This document shows positions 1-22,863 of a DNA stretch of 37,462 nucleotides, in pieces. The position numbers and the translations under genes are program-made. Position 1 is the first letter of the stretch. Each line of letters opens with the position of its first letter. Origin of the DNA: an uncultured Bdellovibrionales bacterium (GTDB lineage Bacteria > Patescibacteriota > Minisyncoccia > Moranbacterales > UBA1568); the NCBI GenBank assembly GCA_964550545.1, contig CAZJZN010000001.1, positions 1-37,462 of the forward strand, given 5' to 3'. Below the pieces are notes generated by a model, which worked only from the letters and a program-made list of their open reading frames with translations, was not told where the DNA came from and made no database searches.

Positions 1-164
1 AAACGCGTAAGAAAAATTTATTTTTGTAATCTTGGAATATATTGAATCTTAGGTTTTGTTTTGTAGAAGCCATACTTCTCCATATTTGTAACCCGACAGA
101 TTTCCCTGTAAAAACAAGGTAAAATCGTATTGCACCAGCGAGATCTCATAAAACTCATCCAATT

Positions 165-180
165 TGTTTCACGTGGAACA
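165..180. promoter_or_regulatory. parS: parS site, exact consensus
   Basis: tgtttcacgtggaaca is the reverse complement of TGTTCCACGTGAAACA; 0 mismatches. Confidence 0.85.
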
Positions 181-344
181 TTTAAAATTAGAACATACTC
201 ATCATAAAAAATTTTACATGAAACTCGCACAAAACATCAAAAAATAATCTAACTGTTCGACTTACGCACACGAGCAGTATTAACCAAGGAAAACCCTCTA
301 TACATCCAGCAAAAACACAATTCCCCCTGCGCATTCACAAAACT

Positions 345-360
345 TGTTCCGTATGGAACA
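345..360. promoter_or_regulatory. Degenerate parS-like palindrome
   Basis: tgttccgtatggaaca keeps the outer arms TGTTCC/GGAACA, but the central CACGTG is replaced by CGTATG. Confidence 0.4.
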
Positions 361-385
361 AACAAAAATCACCCCATTGAAAAAT

Positions 386-401
386 ATTTCCACGTGGAAC
401 A
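386..401. promoter_or_regulatory. parS: parS-like site
   Basis: atttccacgtggaaca has an intact 14-bp core TTCCACGTGGAACA; the two outer 5' bases differ from consensus. Confidence 0.6.
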
Positions 402-547
402 AATACCCCTTAATACAGTGTTAAAAAACAGAAAATTTCTTTTTTTTCTAAAAAAAAGATCCGACCACAAAAAAGACACTCTCTCTCCATTTAAAAAATA
501 TCGGGAAGTAACGATTTTTTAATTAAGATTATGCAACGTAAGAGGGT

Positions 548-675
548 GTCTTAAAAGACTGTTTTTCTGGAGAAAATTGTTTTTTTGCTTGTCTTCCACT
601 GCGTTCGAAAGCCGCAAAAAAACAATTTTCCCCAGAAAAACGTTCAAATTTTCAGTTTTGTGAAGCTTTTAAGAC
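548..675. repeat. Long A/T-rich imperfect inverted repeat (nested hairpin)
   Basis: The 22-nt arm ctggagaaaattgtttttttgc (567-588) pairs with gcaaaaaaacaattttccccag (614-635) with 1 mismatch and a 25-nt loop. The outer arm gtcttaaaag (548-557) pairs with cttttaagac (666-675). Confidence 0.6.
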
Positions 676-796
676 AGTCTCTAAGAAGCCGCTAACTAAG
701 TATAAAAACATTCTTAGGTAATTCATCCCATCTTTCCATCCTACCAAAAATAGAAATCAGGATTATTATACCTCGCCATTCTTATAAAAAATTAAG

Positions 797-812
797 CATT
801 CCACGTGAAACA
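797..812. promoter_or_regulatory. parS: parS-like site (2 mismatches)
   Basis: cattccacgtgaaaca differs from TGTTCCACGTGAAACA at positions 1-2 only. Confidence 0.65.
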
Positions 813-980
813 TTCTCTCATCAAAAAATAGTATTTTACAAAAAAATCCTTACTATGAGAGCATTCTAAAAAAAATCACCCGATCTTAAAAACAAGAACA
901 TCTTCTATCTATACAGCCCATCAAACACCTAAACAATTACTCGTAGTTGTAATAAAATAGTTCTCTCAGAAAAAAATAGA

Positions 981-996
981 TGTTCCACGTAAAACA
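981..996. promoter_or_regulatory. parS: parS site (1 mismatch)
   Basis: tgttccacgtaaaaca; position 11 is A instead of G. Confidence 0.7.
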
Positions 997-1015
997 TTTC
1001 AAAATAACATCGAAA

Positions 1016-1031
1016 CATTCCACGTGAAACA
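1016..1031. promoter_or_regulatory. parS: parS-like site (2 mismatches)
   Basis: cattccacgtgaaaca is identical to the 797 copy. Confidence 0.65.
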
Positions 1032-1048
1032 ATGCGCCAAATACTATT

Positions 1049-1064
1049 TGTTCCACATGGAATA
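1049..1064. promoter_or_regulatory. parS-like site (3 mismatches)
   Basis: tgttccacatggaata. Confidence 0.45.
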
Positions 1065-1485
1065 CATACTTATTTGCCCTAATCGTCAGATCAAAAATCA
1101 AAATAAAAAAGATTTTCTTATCAGGGGCACCTTTTTTATAAACACGGAAGAAACACCCATTAATATGGCTAAAAAATGCTTTTAAAACAACTCATTCGCA
1201 AAAAATATCTATTCACATGGATATACGATACGCAACTGATAAGGCAATACATAAGCCAGGAAAAGAAATCGGAAATTAGCCTCGACTTTCTCCTTGGCCA
1301 TGGCTAAAAGCCTATCCACTTCGAATTAGGGTGTATACCACCACCTAGTCACATAAGGACAGATTTCTCCTTGTTATATATAAAAAATATAAAAAGGGGA
1401 GAGCTCTATAGAAAAACAAAAGACTCAATGGGAATAATCAGAACCGACCACGTAAATAAAGCGTGCTTTAAATTTAGTACTCAAA

Positions 1486-1501
1486 TTTTCCACGTGAAAC
1501 A
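1486..1501. promoter_or_regulatory. parS: parS site (1 mismatch)
   Basis: ttttccacgtgaaaca; position 2 is T instead of G. Confidence 0.7.
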
Positions 1502-1529
1502 ATGATCTCCGAAAAATATCCCACAAAAC

Positions 1530-1545
1530 TGTTCCATGTGAAACA
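1530..1545. promoter_or_regulatory. parS: parS site (1 mismatch)
   Basis: tgttccatgtgaaaca; position 8 is T instead of C. Confidence 0.7.
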
Positions 1546-1718
1546 TTTATCTTTTTGAAACAGGGCGCTTTAGAGAAAAACTCACTTCTATTTACAAAAG
1601 AACACTCCAACAAACTCAAAGAGTCCACGCCTCATACTGGGAGTTGTTTTCGTAAAATGACTCTCTCCTGCACAATATTTCAACTGATACTACAAAAAAC
1701 TTCTGAATTTCCTTAAAA

Positions 1719-1734
1719 TGTTTCACGTGAAATA
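1719..1734. promoter_or_regulatory. parS: parS site (1 mismatch) inside a 32-bp extended palindrome
   Basis: tgtttcacgtgaaata. The flanks extend it to ccttaaaatgtttcacgtgaaatattttaagg (1711-1742), a palindrome apart from one G/T pair. Confidence 0.7.
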
Positions 1735-2003
1735 TTTTAAGGACATTATACAAAAACAGTGTTACGCGAAAAGAATATTTATGAGACGATAAAAAAAGTA
1801 TATTTTTATAGAAATCGTGGTCAGTGATCCAATTGTAACCATCTACTACAGCTAGAAACAGGCACCTTTAAAGAAAAGATCTTCAAAACAGAGGACAATT
1901 AAAATCCACATAGACACCTTTAAACGTACTTTTTTTCCAGAAAAGACTCCAAAAAAAGATGTCTCTTGTGGAACACCTTCTTCAAAAAAATATACCCTCG
2001 ATA

Positions 2004-2019
2004 TGTTCCACGGGAAACA
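2004..2019. promoter_or_regulatory. parS: parS site (1 mismatch)
   Basis: tgttccacgggaaaca; position 10 is G instead of T. Confidence 0.7.
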
Positions 2020-2064
2020 CTTTACCTACTATACACAAGGATGCTGTCATAAAAAATCTAAAAC

Positions 2065-2080
2065 TGTTTCACGAGAAACT
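2065..2080. promoter_or_regulatory. parS-like site (2 mismatches)
   Basis: tgtttcacgagaaact. Confidence 0.5.
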
Positions 2081-2214
2081 TACAGGGATACTCAGGGTGG
2101 ATCAGAACAGAAACTACGGCTACTTTTAGAATGCAGACTCCGCACATAAAAACCTTTCATTCAAAAACGCTATAAATAGAACAAACCACTTTTGATGCGG
2201 CGAAGTGAGATAAT

Positions 2215-2230
2215 CGTTCCACGAGAAACA
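2215..2230. promoter_or_regulatory. parS-like site (2 mismatches)
   Basis: cgttccacgagaaaca. Confidence 0.5.
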
Positions 2231-2317
2231 AAAAAATGAAATCCTTCCGGAAACATTGTCGAAAATATTCCTTGTTATTTTTTGAGATACTATAGTAAAA
2301 AAACACTACTTCTCATA

Positions 2318-2333
2318 TGTTTCACGTGAAACA
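2318..2333. promoter_or_regulatory. parS: parS site, perfect palindrome
   Basis: tgtttcacgtgaaaca has 0 mismatches. It sits in a perfect 20-bp palindrome tatgtttcacgtgaaacata (2316-2335). Confidence 0.85.
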
Positions 2334-2509
2334 TACTCACTCATAGGAATCTCCTGCCCCTTTCAATACAGATTGTATTCAAAAACAGTCACTGAAAATA
2401 TCCTCACACCATTTCAACAAGTCATCAAGTCAAAAGCAATGCTTCCTACAAAAATAGTATGTCCGTCCACTGCACCCCTATTCACTTTTTCCGCCGAAAA
2501 AAATATGCT

Positions 2510-2537
2510 TTGACGAAAGCGGGAGGTGTGCTACGAT
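2510..2537 (+). promoter_or_regulatory. Candidate sigma70-type promoter for the tRNA-Ala/tRNA-Arg pair
   Basis: ttgacg (2510-2515), 16-nt spacer, tacgat (2532-2537), about 55 nt upstream of tRNA-Ala. Confidence 0.35.
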
Positions 2538-2593
2538 AGCCAACGAATCCGGGTCTTCTTTTGTTGAAAACTTGTGGACATCTTTCATAAAAG

Positions 2594-5982: not shown

Positions 5983-6202
5983 AGAGTCTCTCTTACTGGT
6001 TAACCCGGATAGGCTATTTGAATGAACTTTTGGCTTCTATACGCCACATATCCGGTGAAGACCCTTTTCAGAGTCAACGGTAGATACTAGCATAAAATAT
6101 TACATATGTCAATGATTAAGGACAGATTTTTATTCAAAAAAACCCTATGGAAATGAGCTTTTTTAAAGAAGAGCCTCCTGAAAAATTCCGTATTTTCAAA
6201 AA

Positions 6203-6233
6203 ATAAAAACAAAAAAATCGCCGAAACGGCGAT
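6203..6233 (-). terminator. Rho-independent terminator after the response-regulator gene
   Basis: Hairpin atcgccg-aaa-cggcgat (6217-6233). On the minus strand it is followed by a T-run (the A-run at 6203-6216). Confidence 0.6.
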
Positions 6234-6267
6234 AGAAAAATTTCGCACCTCTGTAAACACCCGCACG

Positions 6268-6819: not shown

Positions 6820-7680
6820 TTATATTCTACCAAAACCAAGCGCATGAAAGCTTGATATTTTTTTCCTAGAAAAGCTTCCTCGTACTAAAGCTAACAAATC
6901 AAACGCAAACATTGCAAAGTCTATGTCAGACCAAGTTATCATTGCCGAGTAAAATTTACCCTCAACTTCGATAGAATCACTACTGGCTGCCCCGTCAGAT
7001 ATCATCGACAGTTGCTCCATTCCGGAGATTTTGTCCCCAACCAGCAGACGTATCTGGGCCGTATCATTCTTGTTCCTACCTTCAGCCGAGAGAATTATTC
7101 CACCATAAAATCTTTGACGAACTGCGAACTTCTTCAGTAAGGCAGCCGTAAACTCTTCCGTCTTTTTAATTTCAAAGAATACAATGGCTGAGAAAAAGCT
7201 TGCTGGAAGAAACTTTTTGTACATTTCACCTGGATCATCCACTCCTTTGAGGAGAGGTTTCAACTCATCAAGCTTTTCAAAAGCCTTGTCGACACTCTTT
7301 TTGTTAAAAGTACTCTTTACCTCAAGCACTCCACGGACGTAATCAACTGGGATTGCTCGCGATTGTCCTTGATCACTCTTATCTAAGTTTTTTTCAGTCC
7401 AAAGGATAGGACATTCTATTTTGTCATAAATAATTACGTCGAAATGACGCAGGGTATCATCTTCTAGATTTCCTTGTGTCAGAATAAACCCGGAGGTCAC
7501 TCCAAATCTTGCTGGAAGAAAACCTTCTAGCCAACTACGAAACGCCGCTTCAGCACAAAGACCGTGATCAACTTTTACAGCTTTGCCACTAGAAATTGCT
7601 TTGGCATATTCATATGCAGCAAGCATTGCTATTTTATTCTGAAGAAATTGTTGCCAACCCTCCTTTCTTTTATGTTCCAT
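6820..7680 (-). CDS. PD-(D/E)xK nuclease-fold protein (DUF6602-like), orphan
   Basis: Start taken at MEHKRKEGW. The motifs HGLCAEAAFRSWLEGFLPARFGVTSGFI, then FDVIIYD, then VLEVKST fit the D...(D/E)xK pattern. Family assignment is from memory only. The gene is visibly more AT-rich than its neighbours. Confidence 0.6.
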   Translation of the reverse strand: MEHKRKEGWQQFLQNKIAMLAAYEYAKAISSGKAVKVDHGLCAEAAFRSWLEGFLPARFGVTSGFILTQGNLEDDTLRHFDVIIYDKIECPILWTEKNLDKSDQGQSRAIPVDYVRGVLEVKSTFNKKSVDKAFEKLDELKPLLKGVDDPGEMYKKFLPASFFSAIVFFEIKKTEEFTAALLKKFAVRQRFYGGIILSAEGRNKNDTAQIRLLVGDKISGMEQLSMISDGAASSDSIEVEGKFYSAMITWSDIDFAMFAFDLLALVRGSFSRKKISSFHALGFGRI

Positions 7681-7767
7681 GGTTACTTGAGTTAGTAGTA
7701 CGCGTCCATAATAACCAGAAAAGTCTATTAAAAGCAAAACCGCCCCACAGAGGGACGGCTTGGTTTT

Positions 7768-7842: not shown

Positions 7843-7927
7843 TTACTCCACCAGCTGGCGGATTCGGCGGGCAAGCCCGCCATTTCCAATACTAACGAAA
7901 AGCTCTCTTTCCCGCAATATTTTCCCG
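7843..7927. repeat. Unassigned spacer carrying short repeats shared with 24209-24384
   Basis: ctccaccagct (7846-7856) is identical to 24209-24219. cagctggcggatt (7852-7864) is identical to 24372-24384. It also has a GC hairpin ggcggg-caag-cccgcc. No cloverleaf can be drawn. Confidence 0.4.
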
Positions 7928-7999
7928 TGGGACCGGCTGGATTCGGACCAGCGACCAAGAGATTATGAGTCCCCTGCTCTACCGCTGAGCTACGGTCCC
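7928..7999 (-). tRNA. tRNA-Met/Ile2 class (anticodon CAT), elongator type
   Basis: The reverse complement folds with acceptor gggaccg/cggtccc (G1-C72, so not an initiator) and anticodon loop ctCATaa. The T-arm gctgg-tccgaat-ccagc has C at loop position 2. Confidence 0.85.
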
Positions 8000-8039: not shown

Positions 8040-8048
8040 GTAGCACGG

Positions 8049-8120
8049 TGCCGAGGGGGAGAATCGGACTCCCGACACGAAGATTTTCAGTCTTCTGCTC
8101 TACCACTGAGCTACCTCGGC
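8049..8120 (-). tRNA. tRNA-Phe (anticodon GAA)
   Basis: The reverse complement folds with acceptor gccgagg/cctcggc, anticodon loop ctGAAaa and T-arm gggag-tccgatt-ctccc. Confidence 0.9.
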
Positions 8121-8202: not shown

Positions 8203-8270
8203 TGGCAGTGGACGGTGCCGGACTCGCCCCGTCATCCGACGGGGCGTCCGGTCGAATAACCGGACGAACC
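8203..8270 (-). pseudogene. tRNA 3'-end-like fragment interrupted in the T-loop by a 40-nt double-hairpin element (E1)
   Basis: In tRNA orientation the 3' end reads ..ttc|[E1]|gagt-ccggc-accgtcc-a-ctgcca. There is no matching 5' T-stem, anticodon arm or D-arm in the 27 nt before tRNA-Val. E1 is 8226-8265. Confidence 0.55.
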
Positions 8271-8307
8271 ATCCACTCTTCACTTTCAGCATCTCTTGAA
8301 TTGGCGG

Positions 8308-8487: not shown

Positions 8488-8566
8488 TGGGGATAGAGGG
8501 ACTTGCCCCGTCATCCGACGGGACCGTCCGGTCGAATAACCGGACGAACCCTCATGCCATAAAGGC
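8488..8566 (-). pseudogene. Duplicated 3' part of tRNA-Leu(GAG), variable arm to acceptor, interrupted in the T-loop by element E2
   Basis: Once 8505-8545 is removed, ggggatagagggact[t]gaaccctcatgccataaaggc matches 8600-8636 of the intact gene with 1 substitution. The 5' half is absent. Confidence 0.65.
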
Positions 8567-8598
8567 TTCCAAATCGTTCTCTCGACTTTTTTGGCGGG

Positions 8599-8680
8599 TG
8601 GGGATAGAGGGACTCGAACCCTCATGCCATAAAGGCCACGCCCCTCAAACGTGTGTGTATACCAATTCCACCATATCCCC
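8599..8680 (-). tRNA. tRNA-Leu (anticodon GAG), type II
   Basis: The reverse complement folds with acceptor ggggata/tatcccc, anticodon loop ttGAGgg, variable arm gcctttatggc and T-arm gaggg-ttcgagt-ccctc. Confidence 0.85.
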
Positions 8681-21741: not shown

Positions 21742-22863
21742 ATGAAACGCGCACAAACCGAAAACATCCTCAAAGATCTCGAGAAAAAAATGGTCTTCCT
21801 GGTGGGTCCCCGCCAAGTGGGGAAGACGTGGCTCTCGAAAGAAATAGCGAAAACGAGCGATGTTCCCGTCTATTTAAGCTTCGATCAAGCGGAAGACCGC
21901 GAAATCATCAAAAAAGAGGCGTGGCCTGTCGGGACGACGCTTCTTGTCCTCGATGAACTCCACAAAATGCGAGGATGGAAAAACTATTTGAAGGGAGTTT
22001 TTGATACCAAAAATCCCACTCTCAAGATTCTCGTGACCGGAAGTGCACGACTCAATACCTTTCGACAGGCCGGCGATTCACTCGCAGGAAGGTTTTTCAT
22101 CCACCGACTCCTTCCGTTTTCTCTCTCGGAATTGAAACGTATCGGGGAACCGTCCGATATGGAAAAACTCATCACCCGAGGCGGTTTCCCGGAACCGCTC
22201 CTCACCGAAACAGAGGAGGACGCCGAACGATGGCGGAGTCAGTATTTTGACGGACTCATCCGAACCGATATTTTGGATTTTGAAACCGTACACAATTTGA
22301 ATGCTGTCCACATGACACTGGAACTCCTCCGCCGTCGCGTGGGATCGCCCGTTTCACTCGCCGGTATCGCCGAAGACGTGCAGGTGTCCCCGATCACTGT
22401 GAAACGGTATCTGGAAATTTTCGAGTCACTATTCATCATTTTCCGCGCAACACCCTATACGAAAAACATCGCGCGCTCCATTCTCAAGGAACCTAAGGTG
22501 TATTTCTTCGATACGGGACTCGTCAAAGGGGATATCGGGGCACAATTTGAAAACTTCGTCGCCGTGAGCCTCCTCAAACATACCTATGCGCTCTCGGATA
22601 TGACCGGGAAACAGCATGAACTCAAGTATTTGCGAACCAAAGACGGAAAAGAAACGGATTTCGTGCTCGCGGAAAACGGCGTTGCCACCGAACTGGTAGA
22701 AGCGAAGACTGCGGAAAGCGATCCGAGTTCGAATCTCCTCTATTTTTCAAAAAAATATGGCATCAAGGGAACACAAGTGGTCAAAGATGTAAAACAAGAA
22801 GCGTCTTTTCAAGACATCAATATCGTTTCAGCTGAAAAATATCTAGAAAATCTCTTTTTGTAA
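21742..22863 (+). CDS. AAA+ ATPase with a C-terminal DUF4143-like domain
   Basis: Walker A is GPRQVGKT and Walker B is LLVLDELH. The length and C-terminal region fit the AAA_14/DUF4143 architecture. Confidence 0.75.
   Translation: MKRAQTENILKDLEKKMVFLVGPRQVGKTWLSKEIAKTSDVPVYLSFDQAEDREIIKKEAWPVGTTLLVLDELHKMRGWKNYLKGVFDTKNPTLKILVTGSARLNTFRQAGDSLAGRFFIHRLLPFSLSELKRIGEPSDMEKLITRGGFPEPLLTETEEDAERWRSQYFDGLIRTDILDFETVHNLNAVHMTLELLRRRVGSPVSLAGIAEDVQVSPITVKRYLEIFESLFIIFRATPYTKNIARSILKEPKVYFFDTGLVKGDIGAQFENFVAVSLLKHTYALSDMTGKQHELKYLRTKDGKETDFVLAENGVATELVEAKTAESDPSSNLLYFSKKYGIKGTQVVKDVKQEASFQDINIVSAEKYLENLFL

Follow-up and report, generated by a model that had tools for sequence, protein, structure and literature searches.

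Double hairpins in tRNA T-loops of a Candidate Phyla Radiation bacterium: probable scars of a tiny mobile element linked to GIY-YIG genes

Results

The tRNA array and the two copies of the double hairpin

The window analysed here, i.e. the whole 37,462-nucleotide (nt) stretch of contig CAZJZN010000001.1, carries on its minus strand an array of tRNA genes in which two copies of a short double hairpin, called H in the following, are each found inside a displaced piece of a tRNA gene; this article deals with the nature of these copies and with the gene of a GIY-YIG-domain protein that accompanies H in other genomes. The GyrA, PNPase and L19 proteins encoded in the window indicate a bacterial host, a member of the Candidate Phyla Radiation (CPR), and the best named relatives of L19 belong to Moranbacteria/Moraniibacteriota. 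On the minus strand, to which all features below belong, the order is rplS, the intact tRNA-Leu(GAG) (8680-8599; called by ARAGORN and Rfam, sequence checked), a Leu 3' fragment, a hairpin resembling an intrinsic terminator and followed by a T run (8483-8449; seen as an inverted repeat, and located directly behind tRNA-Leu in the alignment of relatives), the intact tRNA-Val(TAC) (8381-8308; called by ARAGORN and Rfam), a Val-like 3' fragment, and then tRNA-Phe, tRNA-Met and tRNA-Gly. Each H-bearing fragment is located 30-40 nt downstream of the intact gene that it resembles.

A sequence-only reading of this DNA had described a 40-nt element at 8226-8265 and 8505-8545, the copies differing by a 1-nt indel and a substitution, and this was borne out by sequence, fold and covariance model. 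Compared with copy 1 (8226-8265, 40 nt), copy 2 (8505-8545, 41 nt) has one substitution and one inserted base (gacgggg-c vs gacgggacc), and the base directly outside H is also different (actt vs actc); since other strains have actc and ggggc, the canonical form, the oddities of copy 2 are private to the window strain. With up to 3 mismatches allowed, each half of H matched the window exactly twice, where shuffled sequences predict 0.00-0.02, and the covariance model of H, run with its filters off, recovered only these two copies in the 37 kb. A 15-nt match to the T-arm in coding DNA (22725-22739) was taken as chance.

In tRNA sense H reads GTCCGGTTATTCGACCGGAC and then GCCCCGTCGGATGACGGGGC. 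As had been proposed, both copies form a pair of adjacent hairpins. The stems are 8 bp and the loops 4 nt long; hairpin 2 on the minus strand contains a T.G pair in its stem and is closed by an ATTC tetraloop, not by the loop of 6 nt assumed before. The calculated DNA fold was -18.1 kcal/mol for copy 1 (z = -5.7) and -14.9 kcal/mol for copy 2 (z = -3.9), and none of 200 shuffles folded as well as either copy. Furthermore, H has a pseudo-symmetry: reverse complementation turns GTC-ATYC-GAC, the apex of one hairpin, into GTC-GRAT-GAC, as found in the other. It was also recognized correctly that the two copies occupy the same position, which is, in tRNA sense, between C56 and G57 of the T-loop; because H starts with G, it could be placed equally well between G57 and A58. 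The target TTCGAA is itself a palindrome. Comparison of this region, and of a Liptonbacteria locus described below (L001), with Rfam at gathering and at permissive thresholds gave chance-level matches only.

The region with both H units is spanned by contigs of at least six independent public runs, thus the structure is not an assembly artefact, and strains X9, X12, X16 and X11 retain both units. Contigs from a metatranscriptome (RNA) span both units with H unspliced, at low depth and with DNA carry-over possible.

The leucine and valine units

Behind the intact tRNA-Leu(GAG) stands a 32-nt trailer (CCCGCCAAAAAAGTCGAGAGAACGATTTGGAA, 8567-8598) which is not present in relatives, followed by a 21-nt piece, L' (8546-8566), that repeats with 100% identity the variable arm, the 5' half of the T-stem and the TTC of tRNA-Leu (8616-8636). 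H copy 2 comes next and then the displaced original 3' end of tRNA-Leu (AAGTCCCTCTATCCCCA, 8488-8504), which holds the rest of the T-loop, the 3' half of the T-stem, the acceptor strand and the discriminator, and is contiguous with the ancestral trailer and the terminator. This 3' piece agrees with the intact gene in 16 of 17 positions (17/17 in other strains), and the whole fragment (8546-8566 with 8488-8504) agrees with the T-arm-proximal part of tRNA-Leu(GAG) in 37 of 38.

The 111-nt Leu unit, which holds the new trailer, L' and H, is missing from L005 and L007, two independent assemblies with 95-96% L19 identity to the window. These are empty alleles with identical flanks and precise boundaries: tRNA-Leu runs directly into CCGGAGAAAAAAGCC... 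without the 32-nt trailer, being joined straight to CCGGAGAAAAAAGCCATGG and the terminator, and in the window CCGGAGAAAAAAGCCATGG follows the H-capped fragment. Since the downstream flank is the same, it is the window that gained 111 nt, the 3' piece of the Leu fragment is the original end of tRNA-Leu, and the working tRNA-Leu now ends in imported DNA with a new trailer. A spare tRNA end, a spacer and H were gained as one block, and the suggested recombination junction proved right in so far as H marks a recombination or insertion junction. If the insertion is placed at the T-loop, the inserted unit includes the part of tRNA-Leu 3' of the C/G step (here and below the slash marks the insertion point) and the trailer. 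The more distant syntenic loci L014 and L011 contain the Leu..Val-Phe-Met-Gly array without fragments.

The Val unit has a length of 99 nt. The intact tRNA-Val(TAC) is followed by a 33-nt spacer without similarity elsewhere (CCGCCAATTCAAGAGATGCTGAAAGTGAAGAGT, 8275-8307), by nine nucleotides ahead of H (GGATGGTTC, 8266-8274), by H copy 1 and by a displaced Val-type 3' end (GAGTCCGGCACCGTCCA, 8209-8225), which is identical to the intact tRNA-Val(TAC) in 14 of 17 positions. Within GGATGGTTC, GGATGGT resembles a 5' acceptor strand and is fused to the TTC of a T-loop; moreover, the fold pairs AGTGGATGG with CCGTCCACT. This suggests that GGATGGT is a 5' acceptor strand pairing with ACCGTCC of the fragment, and that what is left at this site may be a second tRNA-Val copy, interrupted by H and shortened by an internal deletion. 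With the 5' half of the present tRNA-Val the Val-like 3' piece does not pair, 3 of 5 T-stem and 6 of 7 acceptor positions being matched.

Direct repeats of the tRNA end stand at both borders of the units (17 nt, and a further 21 nt for Leu). Neither window locus is a duplicate of the other, which excludes a local tandem duplication. The hosts of H are indeed two different tRNA 3' ends, Leu and Val, as had been noticed, but they are not free pieces: they are partial copies of adjacent intact genes. Three features had been passed over entirely, namely the displaced end of the adjacent intact gene, the replacement tRNA end within the 99- and 111-nt units, and the GIY-YIG gene of the full-length relatives. 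As a side observation, the new trailers behind both restored tRNAs (8567-8573 and 8301-8307) start with CC(C)GCCAA, the ancestral trailers being CCGGAG and CTGCCAG; the two units may share an origin or a processing signal.

Distribution and target of the double hairpin

A 21-mer of hairpin 2 had one match among 185,579 species genomes, in the Liptonbacteria locus L001, where hairpin 1 is altered on both stem strands. A metagenome scan with one hairpin-2 20-mer, containing one degenerate base, yielded 58 loci, and a covariance model (R1) built on 21 distinct copies of H found further variants. The reading of H as a non-tRNA element, drawn from L001 alone, was dropped, as the metagenome scan made this locus the exception.

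Scan and model together gave 46 distinct insertions, 38 of which are in T-loops, 4 in anticodon loops and 4 elsewhere. The reuse of one T-loop site seen in the window therefore extends to the C/G step of many tRNAs in many genomes; a mini-element that targets the T-loop is an apt description of this majority, and it does not cover the minority of four anticodon-loop, one nested and four other or unclear copies. In the usual layout, given in one orientation, an intact tRNA end is followed by a short spacer, (G)GTTC, H, GA(N)TCC and a tRNA 3' end. The 5' flank of H ends with TC in 41/46 and its 3' flank begins with GA in 40/46 insertions, and about 40 insertions show ..TC/H/GA.. as a whole. The site of the element is the central C/G of a TTCGA-type loop, usually T-loop 56/57 and sometimes the anticodon loop. 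The anticodon-loop insertions, in loops with TCGA or TCGC, concern tRNA-Ser(CGA) three times and tRNA-Arg(GCG), in antisense, once; in L083 H lies within the anticodon loop at CTC/GAAA. The anticodon-loop and nested copies keep the ..TC/G(A).. target, and among the four other or unclear contexts TC is kept before H only in L047 and GA after H only in L022. A target-site duplication of 2 nt (CG) is formally possible (TTCG..CGA); it was disfavoured, since L044 (TTC/AACT) and the pairing between the end bases of H (A-T in L065) point to exact insertion with no duplication.

T-loop insertions occur in either orientation relative to the tRNA, which fits the pseudo-symmetry of H and its palindromic TTCGAA target; H is antisense to tRNAs in L018, L028, L040 and L023. 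In hairpin 1, 5 of the 8 pairs have changed on both sides and 97.6% of cells are paired, and hairpin 2 covaries among the variants found by R1. Searches of viral contigs and of phage records brought up no copy of H and no relative of the GIY-YIG protein.

Several further arrangements were observed. The H copy of L001 (3600-3836) is intergenic, between two co-directional genes with no tRNA nearby, and adjoins a long perfect hairpin (gaggtcgggcc..ggcccgacctc). In L037 (534-603) one H stands inside the hairpin-1 loop of another (gcccagtc/H/ggatgactgggc) without a tRNA piece of its own. The hairpin-2 sequence with a different second hairpin is found inside an RNase P RNA gene (L042, 811-854), inside a 23S rRNA gene (L041, 449-495) and directly 5' of 16S rRNA (TTC/../GAGTTTGATCC; L021 4342-4370, L026 1185-1213, L070 1125-1151); in L021 and L026 a GIY-YIG open reading frame (ORF) is located 104 nt upstream. 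Whole units are also multiplied in tandem, with periods of 86 nt and 107 nt in ORF-less arrays and of about 400 nt with the ORF (L074 4193-4318; L061 1429-2085; L082 89-527); the probable origin of these arrays is unequal exchange, with the repeated tRNA pieces as partners.

A GIY-YIG gene in the full-length relatives

Searches by tblastn revealed a GIY-YIG ORF next to H in 13 loci. Twelve of these are distinct, and in them it stands between H and the intact tRNA gene. The ORFs are 81-98 amino acids (aa) long and match Pfam PF01541 (GIY-YIG) with E values from 5e-9 to 4e-17. Three layouts were distinguished: in the first the order is 5' fragment, H, ORF, intact tRNA; in the second it is intact tRNA, ORF, GGTTC, H, 3' fragment, the ORF reading through H and stopping at a TGA in the loop of hairpin 1; and in the third it is ORF, intact tRNA, short spacer, GTTC, H, 3' fragment. 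The window units correspond to the second or third layout minus the ORF. In some loci it is the 5' part of the tRNA that is displaced; one then reaches the intact gene about 280 nt past H, and the intervening DNA starts with MFYVYFL.. or MYYVYIL..; the displaced copy of L076 comprises tRNA nt 1-56 with 100% identity. In L082, L075 and L081 a second tandem unit carries an internally deleted ORF, a direct example of how ORF-less units like those of the window can arise; such a unit with deleted ORF is known from one population.

As a check independent of H, a search with one GIY-YIG protein returned 56 homologues, and the contexts of four were fetched. All homologues with a taxon name belong to CPR bacteria, with the exception of one Chitinophagales protein. 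In Giovannoni-, Lipton- and Nealsonbacteria the context is a tRNA-Ser 5' fragment, H, 10-35 nt, the GIY-YIG ORF and an intact tRNA-Ser; around the Chitinophagales homologue there is neither a tRNA nor H.

The catalytic-site residues Y, Y, G, R, H and E are invariant, and the ORF encodes nothing but a GIY-YIG catalytic domain, which in its length of about 80-100 aa and its Y..Y.G..R..H..E set agrees with UPF0213 (YhbQ-like) proteins. In accordance with this, its sequence matches are the UPF0213 proteins BH0048 (1ZG2, E 4e-6) and EF2693 (1YWL), and the folds nearest to its structure model (predicted local distance difference test, pLDDT, 95.9) are UPF0213, then Slx1 (template modelling score 0.55-0.67) and then the catalytic domain of I-TevI.

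Discussion

Nature of the element

We consider it probable that the two H copies of the window are scars of a tiny mobile element of CPR/Patescibacteria that targets tRNA loops. The complete element would, with good probability, consist of a gene for an 81-98-aa, UPF0213-like protein made of the GIY-YIG domain only, the 40-nt H, and a replacement copy of part of the tRNA. This tRNA copy would keep the gene intact, as we believe with reasonable confidence, and the cut-off original piece would stay adjacent and capped by H. The window copies are likely to be ORF-less members of the H/GIY-YIG family; being probably inert passengers, they would be transcribed as tRNA trailers.

Several points weigh against this interpretation. 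No GIY-YIG gene or recognisable remnant of one was found in the 37-kb window, so that its link to the nuclease depends on the homologous H elements elsewhere, and the spacers of the window units showed neither similarity to any fetched locus or GIY-YIG protein nor a trace of an ORF. (A weak tblastn cluster at 6036-6260 was rejected as AT-rich intergenic noise.) An empty allele of the Val site was sought in eight runs, and only joints of unrelated organisms were obtained. The 58 metagenome loci were ascertained via H itself, and the protein-ascertained independent lineages examined number only three; a count of partial tRNA duplications lacking H carries the bias of this ascertainment and was left out of account. 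Relative to the gene, H is found in both orientations. It also occurs alone, nested in L037 and at the non-tRNA sites L001 and L022, thus it may move on its own. The restored tRNA retains TTCGA, and simple homing would need an extra means against self-cleavage. Finally, the movement is reconstructed, and the role of the nuclease predicted, from sequence comparison.

How the element may spread

Nuclease-driven homing is the likeliest way in which the element spreads, with chances that are, in our estimate, a little short of even. In such a process the nuclease would break a naive tRNA gene at or near TTC/GA, and the cut end, finishing where the displaced copy finishes in the element-bearing allele, would invade that allele; synthesis would copy H, the ORF and the spare tRNA piece, and re-annealing would follow on the other side. 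Flanks of a diverged donor might be co-converted. The displaced piece often does not pair with the working gene (L025, L045, L067, L083 and the Val site of the window), which would follow from such co-conversion, and other explanations exist. By splitting the retained half-sites, H would make the displaced copy neither a target nor a foldable tRNA. H may also cap or protect the far end of an ORF transcript driven by the tRNA promoter, as no promoter of its own is evident for the ORF, which is always placed between H and the intact tRNA.

Unlikely, in our judgement, is a new structure-guided insertion system in which H, closed by its palindromic TTC/GAA flanks, would serve the stand-alone GIY-YIG protein as a branched-DNA substrate. 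The protein would then act as a kind of transposase or as a trigger of recombination that reads hairpin loops and not long sequences, and would invade structured-RNA genes at their loops quite generally (tRNA, RNase P RNA, 23S rRNA, 16S leader); the partial gene duplication would be a survival route in essential tRNA genes, and T-loops with C in place of U55 could be escape alleles. The fold likeness to Slx1, found with the structure model, offers a lead towards recognition of DNA structure.

The T-loops of tRNA-Met and tRNA-Phe in the window (7927-7999 and 8047-8120) are TCCGAAT and TCCGATT, i.e. C replaces the near-universal U55; the orthologues in L014 have TTCGA, and tRNA-Val of L014 has TCCGA. 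T-loops of this U55C type were present in 5 of 97 distinct tRNAs over all loci. That they are escape alleles from a nuclease targeting TTCGA is pure speculation.

Alternative explanations

The main rival, to which we assign a low probability, regards H as an independent miniature element, similar to miniature inverted-repeat transposable elements (MITEs) or repetitive extragenic palindromes (REPs), that inserts at TC/GA of hairpin loops. Its restriction to tRNA pseudo-fragments would reflect the lethality of insertions into working tRNA genes; the fragments would be older and of other origin, and the GIY-YIG genes would at most supply a trans-acting enzyme. This is favoured by the nested copy of L037, which has neither tRNA piece nor ORF of its own, by the non-tRNA sites L001, L022 and L033, by the hairpin-2 modules in and beside other structured-RNA genes, and by the occurrence of both orientations. 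On the other side, the Leu unit came as one 111-nt block with new trailer, L' and H, and no relative was found with a fragment lacking H; displaced pieces end exactly at H, the stub on the interior side being usually only 4-6 nt; and the GIY-YIG ORF stands exactly between H and the intact gene in the 12 H-ascertained loci as well as in the three protein-ascertained lineages. The one-block gain in the window and the fixed place of the ORF weaken this rival.

It is very unlikely that the H-capped pseudo-end is an RNA element selected by the host, e.g. a decoy in tRNA transcripts or a signal for their processing or stability. The position of the Leu unit between tRNA and terminator and the metatranscriptome contigs over both units would agree with it, as would the stem mismatches of the window copies and of L001, which are G.U-compatible on the tRNA-sense strand only. 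Over all loci, however, mismatches favour neither strand, and a tRNA-sense RNA structure was not upheld across these loci, in which H occurs in both orientations; the unit is missing from close and distant relatives with the same operon, the RNA contigs are of low depth with carry-over of DNA possible, and tandem multiplication with decay of the ORF is typical of selfish DNA.

Scarcely credible is the view that the fragments are remnants of attL/attR type from mostly deleted tyrosine-integrase islands at T-loops, with H as arm or binding site. Tyrosine-integrase elements at tRNA genes restore the 3' end from a copy carried by the element and leave the displaced original end as a direct repeat; a repeated 3' end with the intact gene on one side and the displaced end on the other is their classical layout, and the integrases have a sublocation preference within tRNA genes. 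The H units share with them the rebuilt working gene and the displaced end as direct repeat, and the flank of tRNA-Leu is variable among relatives. In contrast to such islands, no integrase is present among the ORFs listed within about 120 nt of any H, the GIY-YIG nuclease being the only recurrent ORF; the units measure 86-450 nt in dozens of independent loci (99 and 111 nt in the window) and hold no kilobase cargo; either the 5' or the 3' part of the tRNA can be replaced; and the hairpin stands inside the repeat at the crossover point, unlike att sites.

A non-canonical intervening sequence, or a part of a split or permuted tRNA removed or joined as RNA, is refuted for the window even though the T-loop position is exact and recurrent and archaeal non-canonical tRNA introns are known at positions near it, since the fragments lack the 5' half (nt 1-44 for Leu, 8-51 for Val) and the tRNA sequence around H amounts to no more than 38 nt (Leu) or about 26 nt (Val), each fragment has its intact cognate gene 30-40 nt upstream, neither a tRNA nor an intron is called in the fragments by ARAGORN and Rfam (no Rfam intron match at E up to 5), the 40 nt are two perfect hairpins and not a ribozyme core or bulge-helix-bulge, H is antisense to several tRNAs and present in non-tRNA DNA, and the organism is bacterial.

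Relation to known systems

The family combines kinds that are known separately: a homing-endonuclease element, a double-hairpin element, and the restoration of tRNA ends as in integrative elements. The full-text literature, the coverage of which is incomplete, yielded no report of tRNA loops of CPR bacteria that contain double hairpins or GIY-YIG genes, so that a prior description is possible.

Phage T4 has free-standing GIY-YIG homing endonuclease genes, and one of them, SegB, lies in a tRNA gene cluster (PMC2330249). The likeness consists in a GIY-YIG gene among or beside tRNA genes, spread with flanks by break and repair, and polymorphism of presence and absence. The Seg proteins, however, have an extra DNA-binding domain beside the catalytic one, the CPR ORFs being the catalytic domain only; the seg genes stand between genes and not in a tRNA loop, with no partial gene duplication and no double hairpin (PMC2330249); and the host of H is a CPR bacterium and not a phage, with no phage copies found.

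Closer in host is a report that rRNA genes of CPR bacteria contain GIY-YIG ORFs in inserts other than group I/II introns, mostly at the tips of stem-loops (PMC11270868). Our hairpin-2 modules in 23S rRNA and directly 5' of 16S rRNA, the latter with a GIY-YIG ORF nearby in L021, come from the same host group; tRNA genes, hairpins and partial gene duplication are not mentioned for those inserts (PMC11270868).

In form, H resembles the double-hairpin elements (DHEs) of fungal mitochondria, which are short, GC-rich and made of two adjacent hairpins (Paquin, Laforest and Lang 2000, as cited in PMC10085805), and which the accessible part of the latter source describes as near-identical across species, present in intergenic DNA and rRNA genes, and presumed mobile. 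H likewise is a unit within about 26-80 nt of two adjacent GC-rich hairpins that recurs and is conserved in different species. The comparison concerns form only: DHEs are mitochondrial, and in that part of the source neither a fixed tRNA-loop target nor a link to a GIY-YIG ORF is reported for them (PMC10085805).

REPs with their associated tyrosine transposases (RAYTs) and the palindromes derived from IS200/IS605 are likewise short hairpin repeats that insert beside a short fixed sequence, apparently with no target duplication. Unlike in these systems, no Y1 (HUH) transposase was seen beside any copy of H, the recurrent neighbour being GIY-YIG; the hairpins are not set back and reach the very ends of H; and H is pseudo-symmetric and used in both orientations. 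For proteins of the UPF0213/YhbQ type and for Slx1, no mobile behaviour, tRNA association or hairpin partner was found recorded in the searched literature.

If the proposed element is real, CPR bacteria carry a widespread and compact selfish element, measuring about 0.4 kb when complete and about 0.1 kb when reduced to a relic, which exploits the TTCGA of the T-loop, among the most conserved short sequences of tRNA genes, without killing the gene. The abundant small UPF0213-type GIY-YIG proteins of CPR genomes would thereby obtain a concrete and testable role, and an explanation would be at hand for tRNA pseudo-fragments, which confuse annotation and cause assemblies to break in the vicinity of tRNA arrays. 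Such fragments would be natural fossils of replaced tRNA alleles and thus a record of gene flow between uncultured lineages, and questions on loop- or structure-specific DNA recognition by a minimal nuclease would become testable.

Neighbouring DNA

The DNA between tRNA-Leu(GAG) and its terminator varies between relatives and seems to be an insertion hot spot: it contains a 125-aa ORF in L002 (2332-2709; 99% L19 identity), a 65-aa Cys-rich ORF in L014 (8586-8783), and 4.7 kb with several genes in L011 (8613-13297). Directly downstream of the tRNA array of the window stands the gene of a DUF6602 protein (6820-7737). The first part of the window (1-2590) is AT-rich (GC 0.32-0.34) with no ORF above 70 aa, and it contains at least 12 copies of the palindromic motif TGTTTCACGTGAAACA / TTCCACGTGGAA as well as an inverted repeat with arms of 28 nt (561-641); this stretch may be a replication origin or an array of binding sites for a regulator.

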